From: Shigella phage SH7
Sequence record: KX828711
DNA: 64,000 bases
Reading direction: 5' to 3' (one strand)
The first letter of the stretch is position 1, and each line of letters opens with the position of its first letter. The notes under the pieces were generated by a model, which saw only the letters and a list, made by a program, of their open reading frames with translations, had not been told where the DNA came from and did no database searches. Of this stretch, positions 2,250-62,823 are shown one piece after another. Position numbers and translations under genes: made by a program.

Positions 2250-3254
2250 TTAGCTCACCAACTCAATCCAAGCTGGACGAAGTACATCTTGTACCATTTT
2301 AACTAATTCCTTCTTAATCAAAGAAGGATTATCCGCTTGAGTTAGAGTAATACCTTCACGAGAAGTTTCTTCCAAAATATCTTGAACAGTTAGTCCCATC
2401 ACCTTTCCAAAATCTTTAGGACCAATTTCACCAATTTTAGAAATAACGTTATTTACTCGGTTCAGTGTAACGTAACAAGCTAAAATTCCTACCAATTTGT
2501 TATCAGCTTCTGATAGTTCAACTTTAACTTTAATAGGCTTATCAGACTTTTTCTTTTCACTAAATTTGGAATTCTTGCATTTAATTGCTACACGATTGCC
2601 ATTAGGCATCCAAGAAGGATAACAAGGTTTCAATACATATCCTTCAGCGGTAAATACTTCGCCTTTTGCTTCGGCATTCCAAACGCATTTATTTGCATCA
2701 ACTAATCCAGCATGGTCTACTGTAAAATTATAATCTTGGACGACAGAATCTAAATCATTTGGCAATTTAATAAGCTCTTCAAATTTACCGCGACCTAAAA
2801 GTGGAGCAATTTTAAATTTAAATGTATTGCAGAATGATTCCATCATATAATCATCGACATAAGTCACGTCACCACTTTCCATAGTAACAATAATGTCAAA
2901 TACATAGAAATCTTTATCACCATAATCAACATTCTTCTGAATGCCAGGCCCAGCGAATTCACCAAAGACTTGATAAGATACAACTGCTGAAGTTTCCATA
3001 ATATCTTGTACTGCTTTAATGGAATCATCGTAATTCTTTAGAATAATTTCATACCCAAAGAAATCTTCAGCAGGAAGAATCGGTCCAGTACGTTTAGCGC
3101 AAGTTACTTTATCACGCTCGATAATTAGTGAAAAGTTTGTGCCGTGAATCTTTTCACGAGCTACCCACTCCCCACCAGTCAATCCCAGGCTATAAAGTTT
3201 TTCAATAAATTTAGAGTTGTAATGATTTTCAAGACTGCTATACTTTTTAAACAT
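2250..3254 (-). CDS. rnlB: RNA ligase 2 (Rnl2)
   Basis: 334 aa as in T4 Rnl2; [16 protein letters not shown]...EKIHGTNFS with ligase lysine motif KIHG. Confidence 0.92.
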
Positions 3255-3744: not shown

Positions 3745-3813
3745 GTTATCGAGTTGATGCCATTATATACATCGTTTTCTGATTGTGTTTTGTGTGCTTT
3801 CAAAATGAAGAAA

Positions 3814-3827
3814 GGGGCCGAAGCCCC
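3814..3827 (-). terminator. Hairpin terminator downstream of hoc
   Basis: GGGGC-UUCG-GCCCC in transcript sense, 6 nt past the hoc stop. Confidence 0.6.
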
Positions 3828-3832
3828 TGAGA

Positions 3833-5674: not shown

Positions 5675-5703
5675 TAGATATATTTATTACATGGTATTTA
5701 GAC

Positions 5704-7215
5704 ATGACTGACATTAAAGTACATTTTTATGATTTTAGTCACGTGAGAATTGATTGTGAAGAAAGTACATTTCATGAACTCCGTGATTTCTTTAGCTTTG
5801 AAGCTGATGGGTATCGTTTTAATCCGAAATACAAATATGGCCACTGGGATGGACGAATCCGTCTTTTAGATTATAATCGCCTTCTTCCATTCGGCTTAGT
5901 CGGGCAAATTAAAAAGTTCTGTGATAACTTTGGCTATAAAGCCTGGATTGACCCACAAATTAACGAAAAAGAAGAATTATCAAGAAAAGATTTTGATGAA
6001 TGGCTTTCTAAATTAGAAATCTATTCAGGAAATAAAAGAATTGAACCACACTGGTATCAAAAAGATGCAGTGTTCGAAGGATTAGTTAATCGTCGTAGAA
6101 TTCTTAATCTTCCAACATCCGCCGGTAAATCTTTAATTCAAGCTTTGCTTGCACGTTATTATTTGGAAAATTATGAAGGTAAAATTCTTATCATTGTTCC
6201 AACAACTGCTTTAACAACTCAGATGGCTGATGACTTCGTTGACTATCGTTTATTCAGTCATGCAATGATAAAGAAAATCGGTGGAGGAGCATCAAAAGAT
6301 GATAAATATAAAAATGATGCACCAGTCGTTGTTGGTACATGGCAAACTGTAGTAAAACAACCAAAAGAATGGTTCTCACAGTTTGGAATGATGATGAATG
6401 ATGAATGCCATCTTGCTACAGGAAAAAGTATTTCATCTATCATATCAGGTTTAAATAACTGCATGTTCAAATTTGGTCTATCTGGTTCATTACGTGATGG
6501 CAAAGCCAATATCATGCAGTATGTTGGAATGTTTGGTGAAATATTTAAGCCAGTAACGACTTCTAAGTTAATGGAAGATGGACAAGTAACTGAGCTAAAA
6601 ATTAATAGTATTTTTCTTCGCTATCCCGATGAGTTCACTACTAAATTAAAGGGAAAAACTTATCAAGAAGAAATAAAAATTATTACGGGGCTTAGTAAAA
6701 GAAATAAATGGATCGCTAAATTAGCTATTAAGCTTGCGCAAAAAGATGAAAACGCTTTTGTCATGTTTAAACATGTATCGCATGGTAAAGCTATTTTCGA
6801 TTTAATTAAAAATGAATACGATAAAGTTTATTACGTATCAGGAGAAGTTGATACCGAAACCCGCAATATAATGAAAACCTTAGCTGAAAATGGTAAAGGA
6901 ATAATTATAGTAGCTAGTTATGGTGTATTTTCTACTGGTATTTCAGTTAAAAATCTGCATCACGTTGTTTTAGCGCACGGTGTTAAATCTAAAATTATTG
7001 TATTGCAAACAATCGGTCGTGTATTACGTAAGCATGGTTCTAAGACAATAGCAACAGTCTGGGACCTCATAGATGATTGTGGCGTTAAGCCAAAATCTGC
7101 TAATACGAAAAAGAAATATGTTCATTTGAACTATCTTTTAAAACACGGCATTGATCGTATTCAGCGCTACGCAGATGAAAAATTTAATTACGTAATGAAA
7201 ACAGTTAATTTATAA
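5704..7215 (+). CDS. uvsW: UvsW DNA/RNA helicase
   Basis: 503 aa; helicase motifs LPTSAGKS (Walker A) and MMMNDECH (DExH-type); T4 UvsW N-terminus MTDIKVHFYDFSHVRID. Confidence 0.93.
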   Translation: MTDIKVHFYDFSHVRIDCEESTFHELRDFFSFEADGYRFNPKYKYGHWDGRIRLLDYNRLLPFGLVGQIKKFCDNFGYKAWIDPQINEKEELSRKDFDEWLSKLEIYSGNKRIEPHWYQKDAVFEGLVNRRRILNLPTSAGKSLIQALLARYYLENYEGKILIIVPTTALTTQMADDFVDYRLFSHAMIKKIGGGASKDDKYKNDAPVVVGTWQTVVKQPKEWFSQFGMMMNDECHLATGKSISSIISGLNNCMFKFGLSGSLRDGKANIMQYVGMFGEIFKPVTTSKLMEDGQVTELKINSIFLRYPDEFTTKLKGKTYQEEIKIITGLSKRNKWIAKLAIKLAQKDENAFVMFKHVSHGKAIFDLIKNEYDKVYYVSGEVDTETRNIMKTLAENGKGIIIVASYGVFSTGISVKNLHHVVLAHGVKSKIIVLQTIGRVLRKHGSKTIATVWDLIDDCGVKPKSANTKKKYVHLNYLLKHGIDRIQRYADEKFNYVMKTVNL

Positions 7216-7229
7216 GGGCTTCGGCCCTT
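7214..7229 (+). terminator. Hairpin at the uvsW 3' end
   Basis: AAGGGC-TTCG-GCCCTT overlapping the uvsW stop; weak T-tract. Confidence 0.5.
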
Positions 7230-16165: not shown

Positions 16166-16219
16166 TCCTCATGTTATGTCAGTAAGACTACTATAACACA
16201 ACACGAGGGACTTGTAAAC
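16166..16219. repeat. 54 bp direct repeat, copy 1 (early promoter plus leader; copy 2 at 31935-31988)
   Basis: 53 of 54 nt identical to 31935-31988. Confidence 0.85.
16190..16219 (-). promoter_or_regulatory. Early promoter for the 96 aa ORF
   Basis: Minus strand GTTTAC then 18 nt then TATAGT, followed by an AGGA RBS and ATG. Confidence 0.65.
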
Positions 16220-18276
16220 TACATTTTGAACTTTTTAGACATTCCGTTAATGTTAACCAAAGAAGCTAAGATTTGAGAAACTTCGTTTTCCTCTTCTTTT
16301 GATTCTTCTACAAGGAATTGATTAAATCCAGCCATTGGACGAACTTCACCAGTTTCCATTAGATGGTCGCCATCATATACTGATTCTTCTAATTGTTCAG
16401 AAGGAGGAACGATTGTACCTTCGATTAGATACTTGTTATAAGCAGTTTCTTTCATAAAGTAAGTACTTACTTTATTAATCTTCAGTAAAATTCCACGTGG
16501 TAGAATAACTTCAGCTTCTGATGGAAATCCTGATAAATGACCCGGAACGATAACTTTAACTCGTTCAGCTCCTTTAATTACCATACCCACGCTAGTTTCA
16601 GCATCTTCATTAGCATATGTAGAATGACTACCCATATGCATCAAATCTTCTGCATCAACGGAACCTTCTCCTTCACCAGAAAATACTGCTCCGGAATCAT
16701 CTAAGGCCATATAATTTTTACCATACTCACCAAAGATATTTGGTTTAAGTGATGTAGATACGAAGTTCTTGAAATAGAACATTTTATTTTCAATGTTATG
16801 ACGCAAAGTTTTAAAAGTAACTTCTTGTCCACGGTAAAGTGTAGTTCCTGGAGGAAGAACTGAACCTTTAGCAAACGCAGAATCCATAGTCTCGATGTGC
16901 TTAATAGCGCGCTCCATGTATTCTTCACGTGTAGAATCAGGTTTACCTAAAAGGAATGAGTTCATTTCAACATACGAATCTGCACAATAATCTTCAATTA
17001 CATCAGATTCAGCCTGAGTCAATCCTTTTGGAGTTACTTCAGTGCTTGCATATTCATACGCCTGAGCAGCGGATTCATCAATTAATTTATAAATGCCATT
17101 CATGACAAATTGAATAATAGCTGTCTTTTCATCTGGCGTAGCTTTAGAACCTTTAACTAAATCATTGACAATTTTCTTAATAACATCAAAGCTATTAGAA
17201 ATATTAATGTCAGCAAGATCGCTTAAAATTTTATCAGTTTTATAATCAAAAAATTCTTTATTCTTTAAATATTCTTGAGAACTTTGATATGTTATATCGC
17301 TCTGCAACTTGATAGATGGATCACGTAAACGTGCATGGGCTAATGCAATATGACTTCGGAAGCTTTCTAGTTCATAATCACTAGATTTAAAACGAGAAGC
17401 ACTCCTCATATCACCGATAGCTCCTTTGCCGAAGTTTGAACCAATCTGAATAACGCCAGAGTTCATTGGTCCTTCTGCTTTATATACCGGAACTTTAGAT
17501 TCAAACTCTTGATATTTCTTAGCAGCAAAGCTATCACCCTGAAGTGAAGCATCAACAGTAGAATATTGAGCTTGTGCTGCTAATCGACGACTAATTTTAG
17601 TTTTCTGAATAACAGCTTGATCCGTACGCTTATCATTTTCTAAAGCAATAGAAGCAGCAACTGCGACAGCTTTAGGAACAGCATTACCTGTTTTAACGTC
17701 TACATAAACATCACCGACTTTCGATTCAACTTTTGTGAATAACTCAGTTGAAATAGGAGGTACACCTGGAATGTCTTCTAAATTGGCATTTTTACGGTAA
17801 ACCATAATATATGCATATTTCTTATCATAGTCCCAGATTTCCTTTAAAAGAACATATCGACCTGCTCCTTTAGTACGTACTAAACGGTCAGCAATAACTT
17901 GCATTTGACGAGCAGCGCCATTTGTTTTACTTTTTAGTACGCGGAATAGGCATGCATCAATTTTATACTGTTTCATTGTTTGAAGAGCAGTATCAAAAAC
18001 AGCATTAATGACGCCAATTGGATTTCCACCCAAGTTTTTAAGCTTAACTAATGATAATTTTTCATTAACACCTATCATTACGATATGCATCATTTTGTCG
18101 CCTGGCTTAACGTTTTTATTCGTATCACCGCCAGAGGTGTATGTACAAAATCTAAATCCAGGAAGCACGCTTTCTTCACCGGCTTGAATAGCAAAAATTT
18201 GTGGTATTTTATGCTTAGGATTTAAGTTAACAACCGGCGCCGAAGCGCCGTCAAATAATTCTGTAATAAGTTCCAT
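16219..18276 (-). CDS. Alt-family ADP-ribosyltransferase paralog
   Basis: 685 aa; shares MELITELFD... N-terminus and conserved blocks with the adjacent alt product; ExE-type motif SEAEVILPRG; central region diverged. Confidence 0.8.
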   Translation of the reverse strand: MELITELFDGASAPVVNLNPKHKIPQIFAIQAGEESVLPGFRFCTYTSGGDTNKNVKPGDKMMHIVMIGVNEKLSLVKLKNLGGNPIGVINAVFDTALQTMKQYKIDACLFRVLKSKTNGAARQMQVIADRLVRTKGAGRYVLLKEIWDYDKKYAYIMVYRKNANLEDIPGVPPISTELFTKVESKVGDVYVDVKTGNAVPKAVAVAASIALENDKRTDQAVIQKTKISRRLAAQAQYSTVDASLQGDSFAAKKYQEFESKVPVYKAEGPMNSGVIQIGSNFGKGAIGDMRSASRFKSSDYELESFRSHIALAHARLRDPSIKLQSDITYQSSQEYLKNKEFFDYKTDKILSDLADINISNSFDVIKKIVNDLVKGSKATPDEKTAIIQFVMNGIYKLIDESAAQAYEYASTEVTPKGLTQAESDVIEDYCADSYVEMNSFLLGKPDSTREEYMERAIKHIETMDSAFAKGSVLPPGTTLYRGQEVTFKTLRHNIENKMFYFKNFVSTSLKPNIFGEYGKNYMALDDSGAVFSGEGEGSVDAEDLMHMGSHSTYANEDAETSVGMVIKGAERVKVIVPGHLSGFPSEAEVILPRGILLKINKVSTYFMKETAYNKYLIEGTIVPPSEQLEESVYDGDHLMETGEVRPMAGFNQFLVEESKEEENEVSQILASLVNINGMSKKFKM

Positions 18277-18279
18277 GAT

Positions 18280-20340
18280 TTATCCTTGAACGAACTTGTA
18301 AGGCATGTTTGTAATATCTATGCAAGACGCAATAATTCCAAGAGATGATTCTACTTTCTGTTTAACATTTGATGAAACAAATGATGCAAAGTCAACTCTG
18401 TCTTCTATTTCAATATCACCTGTCATTGCAACCAATTCACCAGTTTCCATTAGACGGTCACCGTCATAAATGACTGATTCGGTGAGTTCTTCCGTAGTCA
18501 TAACTTCAGCTTGAATAAGCTTGTTGTTAGTTTTGACTGTTCCATCATTGTAAGATGCATCAGTTATTTTATTAACTTTGACCATTAATCCACGTGGCAA
18601 AATGACTTCCATTTCATTTGAAGGCGCTAAACTTCCGCCTGGTAAAACAACATTGACTTTATCAGCCCCAGTAATAACCCATCCAATTCCGACTAAATTA
18701 TCGCTAGAATTAACAAGCCCTTCATCATTTTTATCGATAGAAATGTTTAGACGCTTTTCATCTGGTAAAACACCAACAGCTGAATCAGTCATCCAAGTAC
18801 CAAAAATGTTTGGATATAATGATGTTGATACAAAATTTCTAAAATAAAAAACTCGATTTTTTACCAATGCTTCATATATTGAAGGTAACATTCGCTGTGA
18901 ACGATATAAAGTAATACCCTTTGGCAATCGATCACCATTTTTAAAGGCTGAATCTAAATTATCGATGGCTTGTTCTATTTCAGGTGCTGTTAAAATACTT
19001 GTACGCTCATCTGGATTATATAATCCCAAAAGAGCATTATTCATGTCTACATATCCTGAACCTACATATTCACGAATTCCGCGTTTTTGCGCTGGCGTGT
19101 ATTTAGATGAATCTTTATTTTCGACTATAGAATGCAATGACCATCCAACAGTAAGAGCATATCCACGTAATTCTCTTCGAATAATCTTTGTTTTTATTGC
19201 ATTCCAAGAATTTTGCACTAACTCATTATTCGCAGTGTCTTGATTTAAATGCGAATGCTTGTTAATATTTCTTTCTAACCAAGCACCTTTATATTTTTCT
19301 AAAGTATCATCGACTATAGAAGCAATAGTTTCTAAAGTTTTTATTGAAGTAATAGATTCTTTTCGTAATCTTTCTAAAGCTTTATTTTTTATTTCTGTAT
19401 TAACATCAGATTCTTTATCTTCAGGAATTATAGAAGCTTCTCTGAATGCCATTCCAGCTGTAACACTATTAAGAGCATTCTCTAATGCAAATCCTGAAGT
19501 AGAAATAACAGTTAATTCATTAGCATCAGAAATTAAAGGAGCGTCAGCGGGTTTATTTAATTCTGCTGCTGAAGCCTCAAATTTTTGAAACATCGGCGTT
19601 TCAAATCTAGAAGATTCCAACGACTGACTTTGTGCAATTGCTCTACGGGAAATTTTAACTTTAACGATTACAGCTTGGTCAGAACGTTTATCATTTTCTT
19701 GTGCAATAGATGCTGCAATTGCCTCATTTTTAGTTACTTGGGCTCCAGTATCTTTATTGATATAAACATCACCGACCTTCGATTCAACTTTAGTAAAGAG
19801 CTCGGTACTAATTTCCGGAACTCCTGGAATGTCTTCTAGTGATACATTTTTGCGATGTATAAGAATATATGCATACTTTTTATCATAATCCCAGAGTTCC
19901 TTAAGAAGGACGTATCTGCCACCTGAACGACTACGGATAAGTCTATCAGCAATAACTTGAATTTGTCGAGCTTGGCCAGCAGTTTTAGACTTAAGAATAC
20001 GAAGCATACAAGCATCAATTTTATACTGACGCATCGTTTGCATTGCAACAGTAAAAACTGAATTGATATAATTAATTGGGCTTGGACCAAGACCTTTTAA
20101 TTTAGCAATTGAACCTTTAGCAGTTAATGTAAAAGGAACAATATGCATCATTTTATCGCCCATTTTTAAATCGCGATTAGTATCACCTCCAGATGTATAG
20201 GTACATAAACGAAAGCCTGGTTGTTCAATTGCGTCATCGACATGAACTGAAAAAATTTGTGGTATCTTCTTCTTTGGATTTAAGTTTGTAATCGGAAGAG
20301 TAGTATCTTCGTCAAATAATTCTGTAATAAGTTCCATCAT
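18280..20340 (-). CDS. alt: Alt ADP-ribosyltransferase (virion-packaged)
   Basis: 686 aa (T4 Alt 682 aa); MELITELFDEDTTLPITNL N-terminus; NEMEVILPRG ExE motif; immediately downstream of gene 30 with own late promoter. Confidence 0.85.
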   Translation of the reverse strand: MMELITELFDEDTTLPITNLNPKKKIPQIFSVHVDDAIEQPGFRLCTYTSGGDTNRDLKMGDKMMHIVPFTLTAKGSIAKLKGLGPSPINYINSVFTVAMQTMRQYKIDACMLRILKSKTAGQARQIQVIADRLIRSRSGGRYVLLKELWDYDKKYAYILIHRKNVSLEDIPGVPEISTELFTKVESKVGDVYINKDTGAQVTKNEAIAASIAQENDKRSDQAVIVKVKISRRAIAQSQSLESSRFETPMFQKFEASAAELNKPADAPLISDANELTVISTSGFALENALNSVTAGMAFREASIIPEDKESDVNTEIKNKALERLRKESITSIKTLETIASIVDDTLEKYKGAWLERNINKHSHLNQDTANNELVQNSWNAIKTKIIRRELRGYALTVGWSLHSIVENKDSSKYTPAQKRGIREYVGSGYVDMNNALLGLYNPDERTSILTAPEIEQAIDNLDSAFKNGDRLPKGITLYRSQRMLPSIYEALVKNRVFYFRNFVSTSLYPNIFGTWMTDSAVGVLPDEKRLNISIDKNDEGLVNSSDNLVGIGWVITGADKVNVVLPGGSLAPSNEMEVILPRGLMVKVNKITDASYNDGTVKTNNKLIQAEVMTTEELTESVIYDGDRLMETGELVAMTGDIEIEDRVDFASFVSSNVKQKVESSLGIIASCIDITNMPYKFVQG

Positions 20341-20368: not shown

Positions 20369-20374
20369 AAATTA

Positions 20375-20390
20375 AAGGCCCGAAGGCCTT
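20375..20390 (-). terminator. Hairpin downstream of the gene 30 operon
   Basis: AAGGCC-UUCG-GGCCUU in transcript sense, overlapping the stop of the 62 aa ORF. Confidence 0.6.
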
Positions 20391-20578
20391 TAGTAATCTA
20401 GTGGTAAGAGAGTACGATATATTTCAAACTTTGGTCCTTTTTCATAGGCATCAAATGTTTCTGTAAATTTATTGTAAGCGTATGCATCTACAAATTCGAG
20501 AATGACTTGTGATACAGAAGTAGAAACATCTCCACCTTCTTTTTGAGCAATGACAATTGTTTCTAAGTAAGCTTTCAT
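20390..20578 (-). CDS. Hypothetical protein between gene 30 and alt
   Basis: 62 aa ORF; its start overlaps the gene 30 stop (ATGA). Confidence 0.55.
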   Translation of the reverse strand: MKAYLETIVIAQKEGGDVSTSVSQVILEFVDAYAYNKFTETFDAYEKGPKFEIYRTLLPLDY

Positions 20579-25142: not shown

Positions 25143-25172
25143 AACTTTATGCAATCTTTGGAAAATAAAAAA

Positions 25173-25190
25173 GGACTCCCGAAGGAGTCC
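25173..25190 (-). terminator. Rho-independent terminator after the 58 aa basic ORF
   Basis: GGACUCC-UUCG-GGAGUCC in transcript sense followed by TTTTTTATTTT. Confidence 0.7.
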
Positions 25191-25195
25191 TCAAC

Positions 25196-27868: not shown

Positions 27869-28104
27869 AGTACGCCATACACCCTTTGTGCTTCAACTAA
27901 TCCATCAAAATCCAGTTTAAGATGCGATATTTGATCGCCATCACCTGGATTCACAATTACTAATACTGAACGAGGAGTTTCGGTAATAACACGAACCGAT
28001 GTTTCAGGAAATCGTTCAGAAACCTTATTTACTAATTCCTGGGCAAATAGTTTAACTTTTTCTTGGAATTCTTTAACAGTAATTGGTTTTTCACTTAGCA
28101 GCAT
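27865..28104 (-). CDS. Hypothetical protein (cd.x cluster)
   Basis: 79 aa ORF. Confidence 0.6.
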   Translation of the reverse strand: MLLSEKPITVKEFQEKVKLFAQELVNKVSERFPETSVRVITETPRSVLVIVNPGDGDQISHLKLDFDGLVEAQRVYGVL

Positions 28105-28268
28105 GTTGATCCCAGCTCCTTACTTTCAACATTTTTAACTAATTTGACAGAAACTAATTCAGCATCTTGGGTAATCATTACCGGACCTTCTTCATACTCT
28201 TCAAGATATTCTAGAGCTTTCTTTTTAGCTTCTTCCTTCGTATCAGTTTGAGCATAGATATAGAACAT
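28095..28268 (-). CDS. Possible small ORF (cd.x cluster; below ORF-track size cut-off)
   Basis: 57 aa from the ATG at 28268 (MFYIYAQTDTKEEAKKK...), filling an otherwise non-coding 240 bp gap. Confidence 0.35.
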   Translation of the reverse strand: MFYIYAQTDTKEEAKKKALEYLEEYEEGPVMITQDAELVSVKLVKNVESKELGSTCC

Positions 28269-28346
28269 ACAACCAGTAATACCTACTACTTTCCACTTAA
28301 TTTCTTTATCAGTTTTAATTTCAAATTTACTTACAGAATCATCTTT

Positions 28347-28625
28347 TCAAACTTCTTCGAAAAAAGAATATTCTAACATATAAGCAATTGAAAATAACGG
28401 GCTAACTTTATAGGATTCACCCATTACATCAACAGCTTTATACCAACAATCATCAATTTCGCGTTTAATGCTAATAACATTTTTCGCAGGATCTATTTTT
28501 ACTTTAAATGAATTTTCTCCAATAAACTGAGCAATTCGTTTATTAGCCCCGCAAGTTTCATTAAAAATATCTTTATATCCAGCTTTAAAGCGATAAACCT
28601 TATCTTCTTCAAACCATTCGCTCAT
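28347..28625 (-). CDS. Hypothetical protein (cd.x cluster)
   Basis: 92 aa ORF. Confidence 0.6.
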   Translation of the reverse strand: MSEWFEEDKVYRFKAGYKDIFNETCGANKRIAQFIGENSFKVKIDPAKNVISIKREIDDCWYKAVDVMGESYKVSPLFSIAYMLEYSFFEEV

Positions 28626-29166: not shown

Positions 29167-30556
<1,390 letters not shown>

Positions 30557-30560
<4 letters not shown>

Positions 30561-31991: not shown

Positions 31992-33579
<1,588 letters not shown>

Positions 33580-33606: not shown

Positions 33607-34785
33607 TTAAAAATATTTTTTAAAACTCATCATAACTTTATCATCAACATCATTATCAATCTGTGCAACAAGGTAAGATGACAGTTCTACTTCTTGTGGC
33701 GCGGATTGAACATTATCAGAATTAAGATATTCACGAATCCAAGGATATGGATGTTTAACCGGAGCATCGGTAATTGGGCATGGAAGACCACACTGTTTCA
33801 TACGAGATACAGTTAAGTAATCAATAAAGCTCCACATGCTATTTGTATTTAATCCAGGAACATCGCCATCTTTAAATAAATGAACTGCCCAATCTTTTTC
33901 TTGGCGGTTAACTTCCATGAAAATATCAACTGCTTCTTGTTCACACTCTTGAGCAATTTTAACCCATTCATCACCATCAGTACCGGATTGAAGTTGACGA
34001 ATAATATATTGAGTGCCTTTAAGGTGAAGCTGCTCATCACGTGCAATGAACTTCATAATCTTGGCATTACCTTCCATGATTTCCATGTTCTTATGGAAGT
34101 TAAAGGTACATGCGAAAGATACATAAAAACGAATAGCTTCTAGGGCATTAATAACGTGCAAACAGAGGTAAAGAGAACGCATTAGTTCGTATTTGCATTC
34201 TTCTACATGCATAAGGCTATTTGAATATGCGTCCAAATCATATTCATTCTCTGAAAAACACCTAAAAATTTCTTTTGCGTTTTCCCATTCACGAGTTTTC
34301 TCAATAACATCATCATAATAACGACCAATAGATTCAGCACGTTTCATGATAGCTTTATCTAATACAATCTCATCAAATACCTTCGATGGATCAGTATAAA
34401 GATTTCGCATGATATGTGTATATGAACGGCTGTGAATAGTTTCACTAAAAGTCCACGTAGCAACCCATGTATCAAGGCTCGGGTCTGAAATTAATGACAT
34501 AAGTACAGCAGACGGTGCACGACCCTGAATGCTATCCAAAAGTGATTGATACTTCAGGTTATTAGTAAAAATATTTTGCTGATACTGAGGAAGCTTATTA
34601 AACTGTGCAGCATCCATCATTAAGTTTACTTCTTCAGGACGCCAGAAAAATGATAATTGCTTTTCGGTCAAATCTTCAAAAACTTTATGGCGTTGAATAT
34701 CATAACGCGCAATACCAAGACCTGAACCGAAGAACATAGGTTCTTTTAAAACATCAACTGGATTTGTATTAAAAACTGTAGACAT
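33607..34785 (-). CDS. nrdB: Ribonucleotide reductase small subunit NrdB (intronless)
   Basis: Continuous 392 codons from MSTVFNTNPV; di-iron ligand motifs present; no interruption where T4 carries its group I intron. Confidence 0.93.
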   Translation of the reverse strand: MSTVFNTNPVDVLKEPMFFGSGLGIARYDIQRHKVFEDLTEKQLSFFWRPEEVNLMMDAAQFNKLPQYQQNIFTNNLKYQSLLDSIQGRAPSAVLMSLISDPSLDTWVATWTFSETIHSRSYTHIMRNLYTDPSKVFDEIVLDKAIMKRAESIGRYYDDVIEKTREWENAKEIFRCFSENEYDLDAYSNSLMHVEECKYELMRSLYLCLHVINALEAIRFYVSFACTFNFHKNMEIMEGNAKIMKFIARDEQLHLKGTQYIIRQLQSGTDGDEWVKIAQECEQEAVDIFMEVNRQEKDWAVHLFKDGDVPGLNTNSMWSFIDYLTVSRMKQCGLPCPITDAPVKHPYPWIREYLNSDNVQSAPQEVELSSYLVAQIDNDVDDKVMMSFKKYF

Positions 34786-35516
34786 TAATTTTTCCTCTTT
34801 AAAATTCTGCCGTGTTTCCAACCTGGCGGTATAATATCATCTTTACCTATAAGCGTGCATTCACTTCCATTATTAATCCATTTCTTACCGCGGATTCCTT
34901 TATAATCTCTTGGTTTTATTTTGTCAAACTTTGCATCAAGTTGATATGACCATCTAAATCCATAAGCATATTGAAATTTACCCTCGGCACAATATTTGAT
35001 ATTTGACCCGTTTCCATTAACTGACCGGGACGCTGCCGCAATAGAGTGAAAGGTTTCTATGAAATCCCCATCTAATGAGAATTTATGTATTTCTACAGAT
35101 GGGCACGCATATCTATTCACGTTAGATACATGCTGTTTAGTTTCGTTTTTATGATGCTTGCCTAGCATCCCTTTAGGATGAGGATTATTTTTCCAATATT
35201 TCTTAAAGAACTCAGAATTAGCTTTAGCAAATAATTTTCTGTGTAAGCTGTACAATCTGTTATTAATTCTATTGCCAGCTTTATCTGTTGCCATTAACGT
35301 TAACGCAGAGGCAAGACCAAAATGACCTTCATTTATCTTACATAGTAATAGATGAGCTATAAAATGTTCTCTGGCTGTTAATTCAACTAAATTTTCCTTA
35401 TCATCAGAACCTCCCATACATTTAGGGATTATATGATGTGTCTCTTTATATTCTAGTAAAGATTCCCGAGCCTGAGCTCGGGAAATTAGGTCGTTATAGA
35501 TTTTTTGATAATTCAT
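34785..35516 (-). CDS. HNH homing-type endonuclease (MobE-like position)
   Basis: 243 aa; HNH motif HHIIPKCMGGSDDKENLVELTAREHFIAH; start and stop each overlap the neighbour by 1 nt (TAATG at both ends). Confidence 0.8.
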   Translation of the reverse strand: MNYQKIYNDLISRAQARESLLEYKETHHIIPKCMGGSDDKENLVELTAREHFIAHLLLCKINEGHFGLASALTLMATDKAGNRINNRLYSLHRKLFAKANSEFFKKYWKNNPHPKGMLGKHHKNETKQHVSNVNRYACPSVEIHKFSLDGDFIETFHSIAAASRSVNGNGSNIKYCAEGKFQYAYGFRWSYQLDAKFDKIKPRDYKGIRGKKWINNGSECTLIGKDDIIPPGWKHGRILKRKN

Positions 35517-38337: not shown

Positions 38338-39198
38338 TTACACCGCCATCTTTCCTTTAATTGGCGGGTGAGATACATAGTTTTTAAGAACAAAATCATG
38401 TGGCTTTGCGAATTGACTCAACCAAAATACCTGCGATTCTGTGTTCCATTCATCAAATTCATCTGGAAATTTTAATTGTAATTCGCATAAATCCATAGGT
38501 TCACGACGCAAAATTTCTTTACATTGTTCTACGTGATTCATATAGATATGAGTATTACCACCAGAAAATATCAAATCTCCTGGAATAAGATTACACATCT
38601 TAGCTACAATATGAACTAACGTAGCATATGATGCAATATTAAATGGAAGACCGAGGAAAACATCTACCGAACGTTGATACCACTGCAAATCCAAATAGCC
38701 ATTACGCACATTAAACTGATAGAACATATGACAAGGTGGTAATGCCATATATTTAAGTTCAGCTGGATTCCATGCAGAAACAATTTGACGCCTATCATTT
38801 GGTAGTTTTTTAATACGATCAACAACTTCTATAATTTGGTCTACACCACCAAAATCGCGCCATTGTTTTCCATAAATTGGACCAAGTTCACCACTATGGT
38901 ATCCTAAATCTTTTGCTTGATTTTCGTAATTTTCATCCCAGACTGTTTTGCCTTGAATTAATGAATCATGTTGAATTAATCGCAAATCATTGACATTTGT
39001 GCTTCCCGATAAAAACCATATTAGCTCAGCAATGCAAGCTTTCCAGGCGAGCTTCTTAGTCGTTACTGCAGGAAAACCTTTAGTTAAATCCCAGCGCAAT
39101 TTAGTACCGAACAAAGCAATTGTTCCTGTGCCTGTTCGGTCATCGGTTTCATAGCCATTTTCCAGGATATCTTTAATTAAAAATTGGTATTGTTTCAT
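38338..39198 (-). CDS. td: Thymidylate synthase (intronless)
   Basis: 286 aa from MKQYQFLIKDI as in T4 TS; uninterrupted reading frame; catalytic segment ALPPCHMFYQF. Confidence 0.93.
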   Translation of the reverse strand: MKQYQFLIKDILENGYETDDRTGTGTIALFGTKLRWDLTKGFPAVTTKKLAWKACIAELIWFLSGSTNVNDLRLIQHDSLIQGKTVWDENYENQAKDLGYHSGELGPIYGKQWRDFGGVDQIIEVVDRIKKLPNDRRQIVSAWNPAELKYMALPPCHMFYQFNVRNGYLDLQWYQRSVDVFLGLPFNIASYATLVHIVAKMCNLIPGDLIFSGGNTHIYMNHVEQCKEILRREPMDLCELQLKFPDEFDEWNTESQVFWLSQFAKPHDFVLKNYVSHPPIKGKMAV

Positions 39199-39401: not shown

Positions 39402-40227
<826 letters not shown>

Positions 40228-40243
<16 letters not shown>

Positions 40244-40587
40244 TGAAAAGGGTCATGAGCATATCCGCTAGCGTCAATCATTTTAACTAAAGTTACCATT
40301 CCTCTGTTAACTGCTTGTGCGATTTCATCAAAAACTTCGTCACTATCGTCGTAAAGGTCATTAAAAAGTTCTAATACGTTCTTCTGAACTTTTAATTTAC
40401 GGCCGACAATTTCGCCTACAGTAAATTCGTTTCCGCCAAATCCAGTGTAAAATGTAATTACACCCATTAACTGGCTTTCACGGGAATCTATGTCGTGTGA
40501 TAAATTAATAAAAGCCGTCCCAGGCGCGGTTTTAAGTTGGCAACGAATTTTTACTTGGGTAATTCCAGTTATATGAATGTTAGACAT
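40228..40587 (-). CDS. Hypothetical protein (position of T4 frd.2)
   Basis: 119 aa ORF. Confidence 0.6.
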
Positions 40588-42586: not shown

Positions 42587-42685
42587 TTTTATTTCCTTTT
42601 TAATTTAATTAACAGTTGGTGCTATGACGATGTATGACCTCATAGCTGGTCAGTGAGATAATTATAATCTATTTATAATAAGCAA

Positions 42686-49948: not shown

Positions 49949-49953
49949 ATTGA

Positions 49954-49971
49954 GGGAGCCTTCGGGTTCCC
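49954..49971 (+). terminator. Hairpin terminator after gene 35
   Basis: GGGAGCC-TTCG-GGTTCCC followed by TTTTTCTTT. Confidence 0.65.
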
Positions 49972-49979
49972 TTTTTCTT

Positions 49980-50675: not shown

Positions 50676-53600
50676 ATGGCTACTTTAAAACAAATACAAT
50701 TTAAAAGAAGCAAAACGGCAGGTCAACGTCCAGCTGCTTCAGTATTAGCCGAAGGTGAATTGGCTATAAACTTAAAAGATCGTGTACTTTTTACTAAAGA
50801 TGATCAAGGAAATATTATTGACTTAGGTTTTGCTAAAGGCGGTAGTATTGACGGGAATGTTATTCATAAAGGCAATTATAACCAAACTGGCGATTATACT
50901 TTAAACGGTACATTCACCCAGACTGGTAATTTTAATTTAACCGGTATTGCTCGAGTAACTCGTGATATTATTGCTGCTGGGCAGATTATGACTGAAGGCG
51001 GAGAACTTATTACAAAAAGTTCAGGAACGGCACACGTTCGTTTTCATGATTCCGCCGACCGTGAACGCGGTATTATTTTTTCTCCTGCTAATGACGGTTT
51101 AACTACACAGGTAGTTAACATCAGAGTTCAAGATTACAAAGCTGGTTCAGAAAGCACTTTCGCTTTTAATGGAAATGGTTTGTTTTCTTCACCAGAAGTT
51201 TTTGGGTGGAAATCTGTATCAACTCCGGTAATTTATACCAATAAAGTTATCACCAATAAAAAAGTTAAAGATGATTATGACATCTATTCGACGGCAGACA
51301 ATGTTCCATTGTCTGAAAGCACTACTGCTATTAATCATCTTCGTGTTATGCGTAATGCAGTTGGTTCTGGTATTTTCCATGAAGTTAAAGATAATGATGG
51401 AATAACATGGTATAGTGGAGATGGATTAGACGTTTATCTTTGGTCATTTACTTGGAGCGGCGGAATTAAATCAAGTCACTCAATTTCCATCGGTTTAACA
51501 CCCGGACCTAAGGATTACTCAATATTAGGACCGTCTAGTATCGCTTTAGGAGATAATGATACTGGATTTAAATGGCATCAAGACGGATATTATTTCAGTG
51601 TTAACAATGGCACAAAAACGTTTTTATTTAGTCCCAGCGAAACAACTAGCCTAAGAAAATTTGTAGCTGGATATTCTACTAACGGAACCGATTTAACTAC
51701 TCCTCCAACTGAAAATTATGCTCTTGCTACTGTAGTGACATACCATGATAATAACGCGTTTGGGGATGGTCAGACTCTTTTAGGATATTATCAAGGCGGT
51801 AACTATCATCACTATTTCCGCGGTAAAGGTACCACAAACATTAATACTCACGGTGGTTTGTTAGTTACTCCTGGTAATATTGATGTTATTGGCGGTTCTG
51901 TTAATATCGATGGTAGAAATAATGCTTCTACAGCGATGTTTAAAGGTAACACAACAGGTAGTAGTTCTGTGGATAACATGACAATTTCCGTTTGGGGCAA
52001 TACGTTTACTAATCCTAGTGTAGGTAATCGTAAAAACGTCATGGAAATTTCTGATGCAACTAGCTGGATGAGTTATATTCAAAGACTTACAACAGGTGAA
52101 GTAGAAATGAACGTTAACGGTTCATTTGAATCATCTGGTGTTACTGCTGGAAATAGAGGAGTTCACACAACGGGCGAAATTTCATCTGGGGCTGTGAATG
52201 CGCTTCGTATTTGGAACGCAGATTATGGAGCTATTTTTAGACGTTCAGAAGGCAGTCTTCATATTATTCCAACTGCTTACGGTGAAGGTAAATATGGCGA
52301 TATCGGTCCACTTCGCCCGTTTAGTATGGCTTTAGATACCGGTAAAGTTACTATTCCAGATTTACAATCAAGTTACAATACGTTTGCTGCTAACGGTTAT
52401 ATTAAATTTGTTGGTCATGGAGCGGGTGCCGGCGGTTATGACATTCAATATGCTCAAGCGGCTCCTATTTTCCAGGAAATTGATGATGATGCTGTAAGCA
52501 AATATTATCCTATTGTTAAACAGAAGTTTTTAAATGGTAAAGCTGTTTGGTCTTTAGGTACTGAAATTAGTTCAGGTACATTCGTTATTCATCATCTGAA
52601 AGAAGATGGTTCACAAGGCCATACGTCTCGTTTTAATCAAGACGGTACTGTTAACTTCCCAGATAACGTTTCTGTCGGCGGCGGTGAAGCTACTATTGCT
52701 CGCAATGGTAATATCTGGTCTGATATCTGGAAAACGTTTACTTCAGCAGGCGACGTAACTAATATTCGCGATGCAATAGCTACTCGTGTTGCTAAAGAAG
52801 GTGATACGATGACCGGTAGGTTGACTTTATCTGCTGGAAATGATGCCCTTGTTTTAACTGCAGGCGCGGGTGCTTCATCGCACATCCGTAGTGATGTAGG
52901 TGGTACAGGTAACTGGTATATAGGCAAAGGCGGCGGCGACAATGGTCTAAGTTTTTACAGTTACATTACACAAGCCGGTGTGAACATAACAAATAACGGC
53001 GAAATAGCGCTTTCTCCTCAAGGACAAGGAGCGTTTAATTTTAATAGAGACCGCCTTCATATAAACGGTACACAATGGGTTGCGCATAAATCTGGCGCCT
53101 TTGGTGACCAATGGAGTTTAGAAGCTCCGATATTTATAGATTTTGGTAGTGTCAGTAATGACTGCTATTATCCTATTATTAAAGGAAAATCTGCTATTAC
53201 TAATGAAGGATACATATCTGGTGTTGATTTTGGTATGCGTCGTATCACTAATAACTGGGCGCAAGGTATTATTCGTGTAGGTAACCAGGAAAACGGTTCT
53301 GACCCACAAGCTGTATATGAATTTCACCATAACGGAACTCTGTATGTTCCTAACATGGTTAAAACTGGAGCAAGATTATCAGCTGGCGGCGGCGACCCGG
53401 TGTGGACTGGGCCATGTCTTGTTATTGGTGATAATGATACTGGTTTAGTCCATGGCGGTGATGGCCGAATCAATATGGTTGCCAATGGTGTTCATATTGC
53501 TTCATGGTCATCTGCTTATCATCTCCATGAAGGTCTTTGGGATACTACTGGTGCTTTGTGGACTGAGCAAGGAAGAGCTATTATTTCTTTTGGTCATTTA

Positions 53601-53987
53601 ATCCAACAGAGTGATGCCTATTCTACATTTGTCCGTGATGTTTATGTCCGTTCTGATATTCGCGTTAAAAAAGACCTCGTTAAATTTGAAAATGCTTCTC
53701 AGAAGCTTTCTAAAATTAACGGTTACACTTATATGCAGAAGCGAGGCCTGGATGAGGAAGGTAATCAGAAATGGGAACCTAACGCTGGTTTAATTGCTCA
53801 AGAAGTTCAAGCTATTTTACCAGAATTAGTTGAAGGCGACCCTGATGGTGAAGCTTTACTTCGTTTGAACTATAACGGTGTAATTGGTTTAAATACAGCT
53901 GCAATCAATGAGCATACTGCAGAAATTGCGGAACTTAAATCAGAAATTGAAGAACTTAAAGCATTAGTTAAATCATTGTTAAAATAA
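50676..53987 (+). CDS. 37: Long tail fibre distal subunit gp37 with C-terminal intramolecular-chaperone-like domain
   Basis: 1103 aa; last ~110 aa (from S993, [10 protein letters not shown]...) resemble the self-cleaving chaperone domain of phage fibre and endosialidase proteins; T2-type arrangement with the gene 38 adhesin. Confidence 0.88.
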
Positions 53988-53991
53988 TAAG

Positions 53992-54007
53992 AGGGGCTTC
54001 GGCCCCT
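53992..54007 (+). promoter_or_regulatory. C(UUCG)G hairpin between genes 37 and 38, next to the gene 38 RBS
   Basis: AGGGGC-TTCG-GCCCCT directly after the gene 37 stop; no T-tract; GGAGG RBS follows. Confidence 0.5.
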
Positions 54008-54018
54008 TGGAGGTTTAT

Positions 54019-54813
54019 ATGGCAGTAACAGGACCGTGGGTAGGATCGTCTGCAGTAGTTAATACAGGACAAAATTGGATGGGCGGCGCGGCCCAACGAT
54101 TAAGAATGGGTGCTCCATTTTGGATGAGTAATATGATAGGTCGATCTGTTGAAATAATTCACACGCTTGGAGCAGACCATAACTTCAATGGTCAATGGTT
54201 CCGAGATAGATGTTTTGAGGCAGGTAGTGCACCTATAGTGTTTAATATCACCGGAAATTTGGTATCATATTCCAGAGACGTTCCTTTATTCTTCATGTAC
54301 GGAGATACACCTAATGAATATGTTCAATTAAATATTGGTGCTGGAGCTCATATGTGGGGTAGAGGTGGACAAGGTGGATGGACTCATTCTGGTGGAGATG
54401 GTAATGGTCAACAGGGTGGACATTGTATTCAAAATGACATTGGTGGTCGATTAAGAATTAATAACGGCGGAGTAATTTGTGGCGGTGGTGGCGGTGGTGG
54501 CGGTATCGCTTATCGTCCTCACTCTGGTGCAAACTGGCAGGATATTGGTGGCGGTGGAGGAAGACCATTTGGCCCAGGAGGTGGCGGTGGTTATTCAGGA
54601 GGTGCTGCTTCTTATGACGGCCCAGGAGGTGGTTATAATTATGGTAATGCTCATTCTGGCCAGGGCGGTGATGCTGGCGCAAATGGACAAAATGCCTGGC
54701 ATGATGGCGGTAAAGTACTAAAAGTCGGTGCTGGCGGGGCCGCAGGTTATGCTGTCATAGGGTCTGCTCCAACATGGCAAAATGTTGGAATAATATATGG
54801 TCCAAGAGTATAA
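54019..54813 (+). CDS. 38: gp38 receptor-binding adhesin (T2-type, glycine-rich)
   Basis: ATG at 54019 ([20 protein letters not shown]...; ORF track begins at an upstream TTG); several Gly-rich motifs ([22 protein letters not shown]). Confidence 0.85.
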
Positions 54814-54843
54814 TTTGAATAAATATCCTTAAAAGGAGGGTCT

Positions 54844-59833: not shown

Positions 59834-59974
59834 TTACCATACTAGTGAATGTAGTGCCATAATAACATCAGAAATGAAAAGCACGACTTGAATCAATCCG
59901 AACATTACTCCATAATATAGTGCTACTAATAAAGTAGCAAGGGCTAATGAATAGCCCAAGATTTTCTTAATCAT
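59834..59974 (-). CDS. Small hydrophobic membrane protein (below ORF-track cut-off)
   Basis: 46 aa MIKKILGYSLALATLLVALYYGVMFGLIQVV...; reading frame closes cleanly. Confidence 0.4.
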   Translation of the reverse strand: MIKKILGYSLALATLLVALYYGVMFGLIQVVLFISDVIMALHSLVW

Positions 59975-60125
59975 TAGTAGATAACAACACAAATGTTAAA
60001 TATGCACACATACCCTGGGCTAAAGCCTGTGAAAACACACTGCTAGCATCGATACAGATAGTTAAAACACATGCTACTATCCAACAAATAAATGAAATAA
60101 CTCCTAATAATTTTGCAATATTCAT
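59967..60125 (-). CDS. Small hydrophobic membrane protein, possibly Ac-like
   Basis: 52 aa MNIAKLLGVISFICWIVACVLTICID...; T4 ac lies at this position with similar size. Confidence 0.4.
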   Translation of the reverse strand: MNIAKLLGVISFICWIVACVLTICIDASSVFSQALAQGMCAYLTFVLLSTND

Positions 60126-60132
60126 ATTTTCC

Positions 60133-60213
60133 TCACTGGCGTCCGAAGACGCCTTTAGTTTTAAGATTATTACGATAGAACTGCATCACGTGTTCGTTGT
60201 GGAAATTACTCAT
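60133..60213 (-). CDS. stp: Stp peptide (activator of host PrrC anticodon nuclease)
   Basis: 26 aa [29 protein letters not shown] matching T4 Stp; start overlaps the ndd stop (TAATG); absent from ORF track because of size. Confidence 0.8.
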
Positions 60214-60671
60214 TAATATGCCTGCAAAACGAATTTAAAGTTATCAGCCAACATACGGTTCATTTCTTCAAGTGTTTGATACTCAGAATGATGATTACGA
60301 GTAAACGCTAAAGCTAACTGTCCTTTTCCAAATCCCGTCGTCAGAGGTTTCATCTTAGAAGCAGGCAGATAAAATACTGTGTATGGAACATTGTTATTTG
60401 CAATAGTACGCGCAAGCTGAGACCGACGTTGACGAATATGACTTAGAACTGCACTGAATCCTTGCTTAGAACGTTGATTACCTACATAAAATCGTGCTGA
60501 CACACATGGATTACTAAATGGATGACCATCTAATTTACTTACTAAAAAGTAAAATCCAGGTTTAGATAAAATATCTTTATGCGGAGTTCCCAAAAACCAC
60601 TCACCACCCTTGATTGTACCAATAACAGTAGCACCTGCATTATTCAGATCAGTAACAGTCATGTATTTCAT
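60213..60671 (-). CDS. ndd: Ndd nucleoid disruption protein
   Basis: Start trimmed to [18 protein letters not shown] (152 aa; T4 Ndd about 151 aa). Confidence 0.9.
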
Positions 60672-60731
60672 ATTGATTTCCTCTAAATTATTTTCTACTC
60701 CAAGGCCGCATGAATTCATACGGCCGATAGA

Positions 60732-61624: not shown

Positions 61625-61888
61625 TCATAGTTCAATCTCAGCGATTTTCATTTCATTACTATTAATAGCCGCTTTAAGACTATCTGAAAGAATTACATTC
61701 CAGTGGTCATTCATATGGCCATTAACTAAGCGTGTAATTTCTTCAGGAGTTGAAAAATAAGGTTGATCAGACTCCCAATGTGATAATCCTAAGCGAGTAT
61801 AAATCATGCCTTCATCATCGCTAGAATATTCAACTGACACAAACTCATCAGTTATTTTATGTTTAGCGTAATAAAATTTAAATTTCAT
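61625..61888 (-). CDS. Hypothetical protein
   Basis: Start trimmed to the ATG at 61888 (MKFKFYYAKHK...), 87 aa; the ORF-track extension to 61987 covers the promoter. Confidence 0.55.
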   Translation of the reverse strand: MKFKFYYAKHKITDEFVSVEYSSDDEGMIYTRLGLSHWESDQPYFSTPEEITRLVNGHMNDHWNVILSDSLKAAINSNEMKIAEIEL

Positions 61889-61922
61889 TTTATTCTCCAA
61901 ATCCATATCAGTTGATAGTTGT

Positions 61923-61952
61923 ATAGTACCACGGTCCTTGTGGTATGTAAAC
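61923..61952 (-). promoter_or_regulatory. Early promoter (third copy of the conserved promoter cassette)
   Basis: Minus strand GTTTAC then 18 nt then TACTAT, near-identical over about 60 nt to the promoters at 41576-41605 and 58270-58299. Confidence 0.6.
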
Positions 61953-61968
61953 TGTTTTGTGAAATTTT

Positions 61969-62526
61969 TTAAATGGAAAGATACCATCCGTTGTAGTTGC
62001 TTTTTCTTACAACCTTACGAAGGTCTTCTCTGTCACCGATGAACTTCGGAGTGTACTGGATGACACCTGGATGAATTTCTTTAGTGTTGAATATAATTAT
62101 ACAGTCAGCGACTTGATGATTTAGAATGGGTCCTAGATTTATTCCAGAACCGTATGGATACTCTCCGCTGCATCCTGTTGTTACAGAAATCCAACGTGAG
62201 TCAGTTTGGTGTGTCTTAACTTCTACACGAAGCCCGCAGTATCTTGGATGCGCCAATACATCCCATGCGTATGTATACGGGTCATTAACATCTTCTTGAC
62301 CTTTATTGACATATCCGCTTAGCCAATCTGCCACAAAAAACTCTGCGTACACAGCGATACGGCATCTTTCGATAACTTCTGCTTTATCCTGGTTCGGGTT
62401 TTGTTTTAAAGAGTATCTTGCTGTATCAGCAATTTTGACCTTCATTTCACTAGTCAAGTCACTGTTCGATAGGGTAAATGTCGGAATCTGAAATAGTCTC
62501 TGTAAACCCGGATTCGTTTTCTGCAT
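61969..62526 (-). CDS. denB: Endonuclease IV (DenB)
   Basis: 185 aa as in T4 DenB; lies between rIIB and ndd. Confidence 0.9.
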   Translation of the reverse strand: MQKTNPGLQRLFQIPTFTLSNSDLTSEMKVKIADTARYSLKQNPNQDKAEVIERCRIAVYAEFFVADWLSGYVNKGQEDVNDPYTYAWDVLAHPRYCGLRVEVKTHQTDSRWISVTTGCSGEYPYGSGINLGPILNHQVADCIIIFNTKEIHPGVIQYTPKFIGDREDLRKVVRKSNYNGWYLSI

Positions 62527-62788: not shown

Positions 62789-62806
62789 AATTTTCCTTAA
62801 AACAAA

Positions 62807-62820
62807 AGGGCCGAAGCCCT
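62807..62820 (-). terminator. C(UUCG)G hairpin terminator
   Basis: AGGGC-UUCG-GCCCU in transcript sense followed by TTTTGTTTT. Confidence 0.55.
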
Positions 62821-62823
62821 CTT

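Follow-up and report, generated by a model that had tools for sequence, protein, structure and literature searches.

The reading frame at positions 60133–60213 on the minus strand of Shigella phage SH7 (sequence record KX828711) belongs, with a probability of roughly 97 %, to a T4-like phage of the genus Tequatrovirus and is its stp gene, whose product Stp would trigger the host nuclease PrrC, with the products of pseT and rnlA repairing the tRNA-Lys that PrrC cuts. The frame lies in a 64-kb (64 000 nt) stretch of SH7 DNA, which constituted the whole of the sequence analysed and is referred to here as the window. Direct translation yielded an intact ORF of 26 codons, from ATG through to CAG TGA, confirming the proposal of a first-pass annotation, which had omitted the strand. 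The encoded peptide was identical to T4 Stp (NP_049878) at 26/26 residues. It also matched the Pfam family PF08133 (anticodon nuclease activator, Nuclease_act) end to end, with residues 1–26 aligned to model positions 1–26 (E = 2e-21, 75.3 bits, cutoff 25), as well as PHROG 6763 ('activator of host PrrC lysyl-tRNA endonuclease'; E = 4.4e-21). Sequence, core residues and genome position all placed the peptide within PF08133. At the nucleotide level, stp in the window was identical to that of RB27, and only two changes, both synonymous, set it apart from that of T4 (His CAT to CAC; Asn AAC to AAT). Nothing in the sequence speaks against the identification.

Genomic context and expression of stp

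The window shared the arrangement 52 / 52.1 / ac / stp / ndd / ndd.1 with the annotated T4 and RB27 records. The T4 reference record carries stp at 165505–165585, between ac and ndd, and in the window the gene was found on the early-gene strand, directly downstream of ndd, with ac following it. The features of this neighbourhood are as follows.

60133–60213, minus strand: stp, translation identical to T4 NP_049878, PF08133, PHROG 6763
60211–60215, minus strand: TAATG junction of ndd and stp, read from the sequence and the same in T4 and RB27
60213–60671, minus strand: ndd (nucleoid disruption protein), PF06591 (E = 1e-94), 98 % identical to T4 Ndd
59967–60125, minus strand: ac (acridine resistance membrane protein), PHROG 2501, synteny with T4 and RB27

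As had been noted previously, the stp start codon overlaps the ndd stop: the ATG (60213–60211) and the TAA (60215–60213) share one base within TAATG. Upstream of the start, at a distance of 7 nt, there was a weak AGG. The overlap and the weak AGG together suggest translational coupling of stp to ndd, the upstream gene transcribed in the same direction. The downstream gene, ac, was identical to T4 Ac at 51 of 52 aligned positions. A dedicated stp promoter was rejected, as no MotA-box middle promoter was found nearby and sigma-70-like sites within 59.7–61.4 kb were at the level of shuffled sequence (10 versus 8.6 ± 3.2, no excess). Because no such promoter was found, we only infer co-transcription with ndd: stp is probably transcribed together with it from upstream early promoters and translated from the overlapping ATG, which would give the 26-residue peptide. 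Expression of stp is listed as delayed early (PMC3014915). The longest ndd ORF extends over 60213–60719 (minus strand), with a start (MKYMTV...) that precedes the one in T4 by 16 codons. The RB27 gene is annotated in this long form, and the T4-type start at 60671 is preceded by a good GAGG Shine–Dalgarno sequence.

The first-pass annotation attributed the absence of stp from the ORF track to its size, which is plausible because the ORF appeared only when the threshold was lowered to 20 aa. It also described the gene as unannotated. That holds for many GenBank records, but not for T4, the RB phages, ACG-C40 and the BASEL phages, in which stp is annotated explicitly (as 'type IC restriction inhibitor' in BASEL). 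Among close Tequatrovirus matches, inspected as an evenly spaced sample of tblastn records, the majority have ndd as the sole annotation at the position of the Stp match. The omission of stp is a common gene-caller artefact, not a knowledge gap. Since gene callers with a length threshold skip a gene of 26 codons, automated inventories of counter-defence genes can be expected to under-count stp. The gene itself is already known and identical to the T4 prototype, making this a correct but ordinary annotation fix. The gain lies in annotation quality only; the window carries stp, pseT and rnlA, the set that is standard for T4.

Selection on the peptide and the RNA hairpin in its tail

The Stp peptide was used as a tblastn query to assess retention, which the earlier annotation had suggested should be checked across relatives. 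Matches were returned from 816 phage records, 610 of which covered at least 80 % of the peptide, whilst 421 were at least 99 % identical to it. We then aligned ten homologues extracted from four lineages. Residues ~1–18 were largely conserved in the ten phages and the C-terminal tail was variable, with the distant homologues displaying conservative substitutions at about eight core positions. The core can be approximated as M-S-[NS]-[FWH]-H-N-[EG]-H-[VI]-M-Q-[FWL]-[YH]-R-x-x-[LI]-K. In T4, loss-of-function suppressors cluster at residues 4–14, residues 1–18 hardly vary among T4 relatives, and deletion of the last 8 codons only moderately decreased both activities of Stp (PMC3014915). The conserved core and variable tail seen here match that published mutational map (PMC3014915), and residues 1–18 of the window peptide, including positions 4–14 to which the suppressors map, were identical to those of T4.

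Comparison with individual phages revealed the same pattern. T4 Stp shares its 26-residue sequence, length, strand, position between ndd and ac and TAATG overlap with the window gene, and the two genes differ by 2 synonymous and 0 replacement changes. The first 18 residues of Stp in T2 and TOPO13 were the same as in the window, with synonymous changes only (3 synonymous and 0 replacement differences over the first 18 codons for T2). In contrast, Stp of VR7 (Gaprivervirus) carried three replacements in residues 1–18 (F12W, Y13H and N15H). In T2, TOPO13 and VR7 stp occupied the same position after ndd as in the window, but their tails differed from that of the window peptide (T2 type, NFGILGFKK and NFGILGSKNS; VR7, LTGVFGRP). 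In the Kagunavirus K1ind2 homologue, 9/18 of the first codons differed and 9/9 of these differences were synonymous. Judged by these substitutions, selection on stp is acting at the peptide level.

These comparisons bear directly on whether the frame might be a small ORF that arose by chance in the AT-rich ndd–ac interval, without a functional product. Short ORFs are abundant in this region, where 48 ORFs of at least 20 aa overlapped the 3.5-kb stretch around stp, and the Shine–Dalgarno sequence upstream of stp is weak, consisting of AGG only. Given this abundance, the case for stp rests on sequence comparison. A chance frame would not be expected to encode a product identical at 26/26 residues to a genetically and biochemically characterized peptide, to score 2e-21 against a Pfam family, to differ from T4 and K1ind2 by synonymous substitutions only, or to be kept in more than 600 phage records at a coverage of at least 80 %. 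The chance-ORF explanation was rejected on the grounds of identity, family score and the synonymous-only substitution pattern, and we regard it as exceedingly improbable.

Folding of the region identified one local structure of interest, located in the stp tail.

60138–60153, minus strand: GGCGUC-UUCG-GACGCC hairpin, present in the minimum-free-energy, centroid and local folds; stp codons 21–26

The hairpin comprised a 6-bp stem closed by a UUCG loop, with a free energy of -11.5 kcal/mol in the local fold, and ended 2 nt before the ac Shine–Dalgarno sequence (GAGG). On the plus strand, a T-rich run follows the stem, and the structure appeared terminator-like in a terminator scan. The stp gene of VR7 keeps the stem (with a UUUG loop) despite changed flanking residues, whilst neither T2-type stp nor the homologues of Rtp and K1ind2 had the hairpin. 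Rtp and K1ind2 retain the GVFG residues without the hairpin, and T2-type stp has neither. Across the whole window, CTTCGG occurred 28 times versus 13.7 ± 3.3 in dinucleotide shuffles, an approximately twofold excess that 0/100 shuffles reached. Twelve copies, including the one in stp, closed the loops of 4–9 bp stems, mostly just after genes (e.g. 864–883, 3813–3828, 7214–7229, 20373–20392, 25171–25192, 49952–49973, 53991–54008 and 62804–62823). This pattern fits the C(UUCG)G hairpins of T4 that were reportedly described by Tuerk et al. in 1988.

It could be asked whether conservation of the stretch chiefly reflects an RNA element, serving mRNA stability or control of ac translation, with the peptide secondary. 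The stable 6-bp hairpin in codons 21–26 at 2 nt from the ac Shine–Dalgarno sequence would suit such a role, as would the twofold excess of CTTCGG with 12 copies in stems and the retention of the stem in VR7 where flanking residues change; the last 8 codons, moreover, are largely dispensable for Stp activity (PMC3014915). However, the hairpin is limited to the last six codons, whereas the conserved and mutationally sensitive part of the gene is residues 1–18, in which change is synonymous only, and the GVFG residues persist in Rtp and K1ind2 without a hairpin, whilst T2-type stp lacks both. Conservation mainly as RNA is thus very unlikely, and the stretch is best read as the peptide-coding gene stp. 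At most, the hairpin represents a second, local constraint on the stp tail and not a replacement for the peptide. Its role may be, for example, that of a barrier to 3'–5' decay or a modulator of ac translation.

The PrrC pathway, companion genes and genomic background

The two activities of T4 Stp, inhibition of restriction and activation of PrrC, are attributed to Penner et al. 1995 (J Mol Biol 249:857), the source cited by PMC3014915, PMC12707154 and PMC12409349. On prr+ E. coli, T4 mutated in pnk or rli is restricted, and stp is the gene defined by mutations that suppress this restriction (PMC3014915). Stp relieves restriction by the type IC enzymes EcoprrI and EcoR124I, not by the type IA enzymes EcoKI and EcoBI (PMC3014915). 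It acts on the Hsd complex, not directly on PrrC; PrrC activation needs GTP hydrolysis, with dTTP as co-activator, and the cut tRNA is healed by Pnk and sealed by Rnl1 (PMC3014915, PMC12707154, PMC12409349). The mode of EcoprrI inhibition by Stp is still described as unknown in PMC12707154. Since the window peptide is identical to T4 Stp, the window makes neither the inhibition of a type IC enzyme by a 26-mer nor the structure of the complex any more tractable. A search of the PDB by sequence identified no Stp structure at E <= 10.

For the window peptide, we infer anti-restriction and PrrC activation from its identity with the T4 peptide. By analogy with the scheme established for T4, Stp would target the type IC complex EcoprrI, and also EcoR124I, and thereby block DNA restriction. 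In hosts carrying prrC in the type IC locus, the interaction between EcoprrI and PrrC would be changed and PrrC unmasked, which would then cut tRNA-Lys 5' of the wobble base to leave a 2',3'-cyclic phosphate and a 5'-OH. These ends would be healed by the pseT product and resealed by the rnlA product, allowing infection to proceed. In common prr-less hosts, stp, pseT and rnlA would probably be dispensable.

Two statements in the first-pass annotation require narrowing in this light. It had Stp inactivate type I restriction; this is accurate for type IC, but too broad as worded because Stp is without effect on the type IA enzymes EcoKI and EcoBI (PMC3014915). It also had stp complete a tRNA cleavage and repair set. 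Stp does serve as the trigger of PrrC, but it is not a component of repair, as stp mutations rescue pnk- or rli- phage on prr+ hosts (PMC3014915).

The companion genes named alongside stp were examined for intactness and catalytic motifs.

29356–30261, minus strand: pseT, polynucleotide 5'-kinase / 3'-phosphatase, PF25109 (1.9e-57) and PF13671 (4.5e-24)
31992–33116, minus strand: rnlA (gene 63), RNA ligase 1, PF09511 and PF20819 (T4_Rnl1_C)
2250–3254, minus strand: rnlB, RNA ligase 2, PF09414 and PF18043

The coordinates previously given for pseT and rnlA were correct, and both genes were intact with their catalytic motifs. PseT, with its kinase and HAD phosphatase domains, displayed a P-loop (GCPGSGKS, residue 10) and DVDGT (residue 165), thereby combining the kinase P-loop and DxDxT phosphatase motif of a bifunctional Pnkp, and was 89 % identical to T4 PseT. 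Rnl1 was 98.4 % identical to its T4 counterpart and carried both the motif I lysine (K99, the adenylylation lysine, in KEDG) and the tRNA-specific C-terminal domain. Rnl2, likewise intact and with K35 in KIHG, was 97.9 % identical to T4 Rnl2. The RNA ligase 2 gene is therefore present as had been claimed, but its inclusion in the tRNA repair set did not stand: according to notes in the T4 record, it is rnlA that acts with PseT in repairing tRNA in prr hosts, and Rnl2 has no documented role in the prr pathway. With the relation to tRNA-Lys in mind, the 64-kb window was also searched for tRNA genes and none were found. Directly upstream of pseT, the place of T4 pseT.1 is taken by an unrelated 100-aa ORF (30258–30560, minus strand; phrog_2364, no Pfam match), the stop of which overlaps the pseT start.

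The window was colinear with T4 105661–168903 in a blastn map. That it might be T4 itself was rejected, as the nearest records in the collection searched were only 94–98 % identical and there were clear differences in gene content; it represents a different Tequatrovirus mosaic from T4. The T4 genes segD, segE and segG were absent with clean junctions in the blastn map, as were two T4 group I introns, the I-TevIII-containing one of nrdB and the I-TevI-containing one of td.

862–921, 5690–5710, 34109–34112, 38649–38650 and 42649–42685: junctions of the T4 seg and intron absences (blastn map)

Several further differences from T4 were observed. Two intact tandem genes for Alt-type ADP-ribosyltransferases were present at 16219–18276 and 18280–20340 (minus strand). 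The upstream gene product was 96 % identical to T4 Alt and the downstream paralogue only 42 % identical to the upstream one, occupying the site of the T4 remnants alt.-1 and alt.-2 (an old duplication). Between nrdB and nrdA, a 243-aa HNH/NUMOD1 homing-endonuclease-like ORF (34785–35516, minus strand) was found at the site of nrdB.1 and mobE in T4, its 3' end overlapping the 5' end of the listed nrdB ORF. Neither gene 38 nor the distal portion of gene 37 (50843–54818, plus strand) had a T4 DNA match, and gp38 (54007–54813, plus strand) was a T2-type tail-fibre adhesin (PF05268 and PF21721), which implies a receptor specificity different from that of T4. Also without T4 DNA counterparts were a 120-aa ORF between ndd.6 and denB (61625–61987, minus strand; phrog_2390), two ORFs near cd.2/cd.3 that match the two halves of phrog_3710 (28095–28625, minus strand), and an 86-aa ORF and a 119-aa ORF (DUF7247) upstream of frd (39983–40587, minus strand).

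Stp in other phages and comparable systems

Stp-like peptides were also identified in siphoviruses, namely in Drexlerviridae (Rtp rtp6, U136B_009 and P818), Kagunavirus K1ind2 and Caminolopintovirus STGO-35-1, some of them annotated as PrrC activators. These peptides have the core in common with the window Stp but an unrelated genome context. The K1ind2 copy is unannotated (1501–1578 of the extracted piece) and was 92 % identical over residues 1–25. In the extracted pieces of Rtp (1444–2524) and U136B (1501–2714), a 'polynucleotide kinase' gene lies within ~1 kb of the Stp-like peptide. A complete repair set in Stp-bearing siphoviruses was rejected for Rtp, the one genome scanned: its 'polynucleotide kinase' aligned only to the phosphatase half of PseT, and the genome contained no match to Rnl1 or Rnl2. 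Lacking the kinase half and the RNA ligases, Rtp is therefore missing the heal-and-seal partners present in the window.

Two separate readings seem to us rather unlikely: that the hairpin is a working RNA element and, given the spread of Stp-like peptides to siphoviruses and the absence of the kinase and ligase from Rtp, that Stp serves primarily as a type IC anti-restriction factor acting alone. Were the hairpin to work in this way, the dispensable GVFGRQ tail of Tevenvirinae Stp would be partly shaped by RNA structure; were Stp primarily a stand-alone factor, PrrC-type guardians should kill such siphoviruses. Neither reading alters the identity of the gene as stp.

Stp is a textbook phage anti-restriction factor that is sensed by a host 'guardian', PrrC. 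It is a 26-mer and bears no sequence relation to Ocr of T7, which mimics DNA and has about 116 residues. T7 Ocr with PARIS and the Ronin system follow the same logic, in that an inhibitor of type I restriction is sensed by the host (PMC12409349). In guardian systems of this kind, a tRNA-targeting or toxic effector is released upon sensing of the restriction inhibitor (PMC12409349), as PrrC is in response to Stp.
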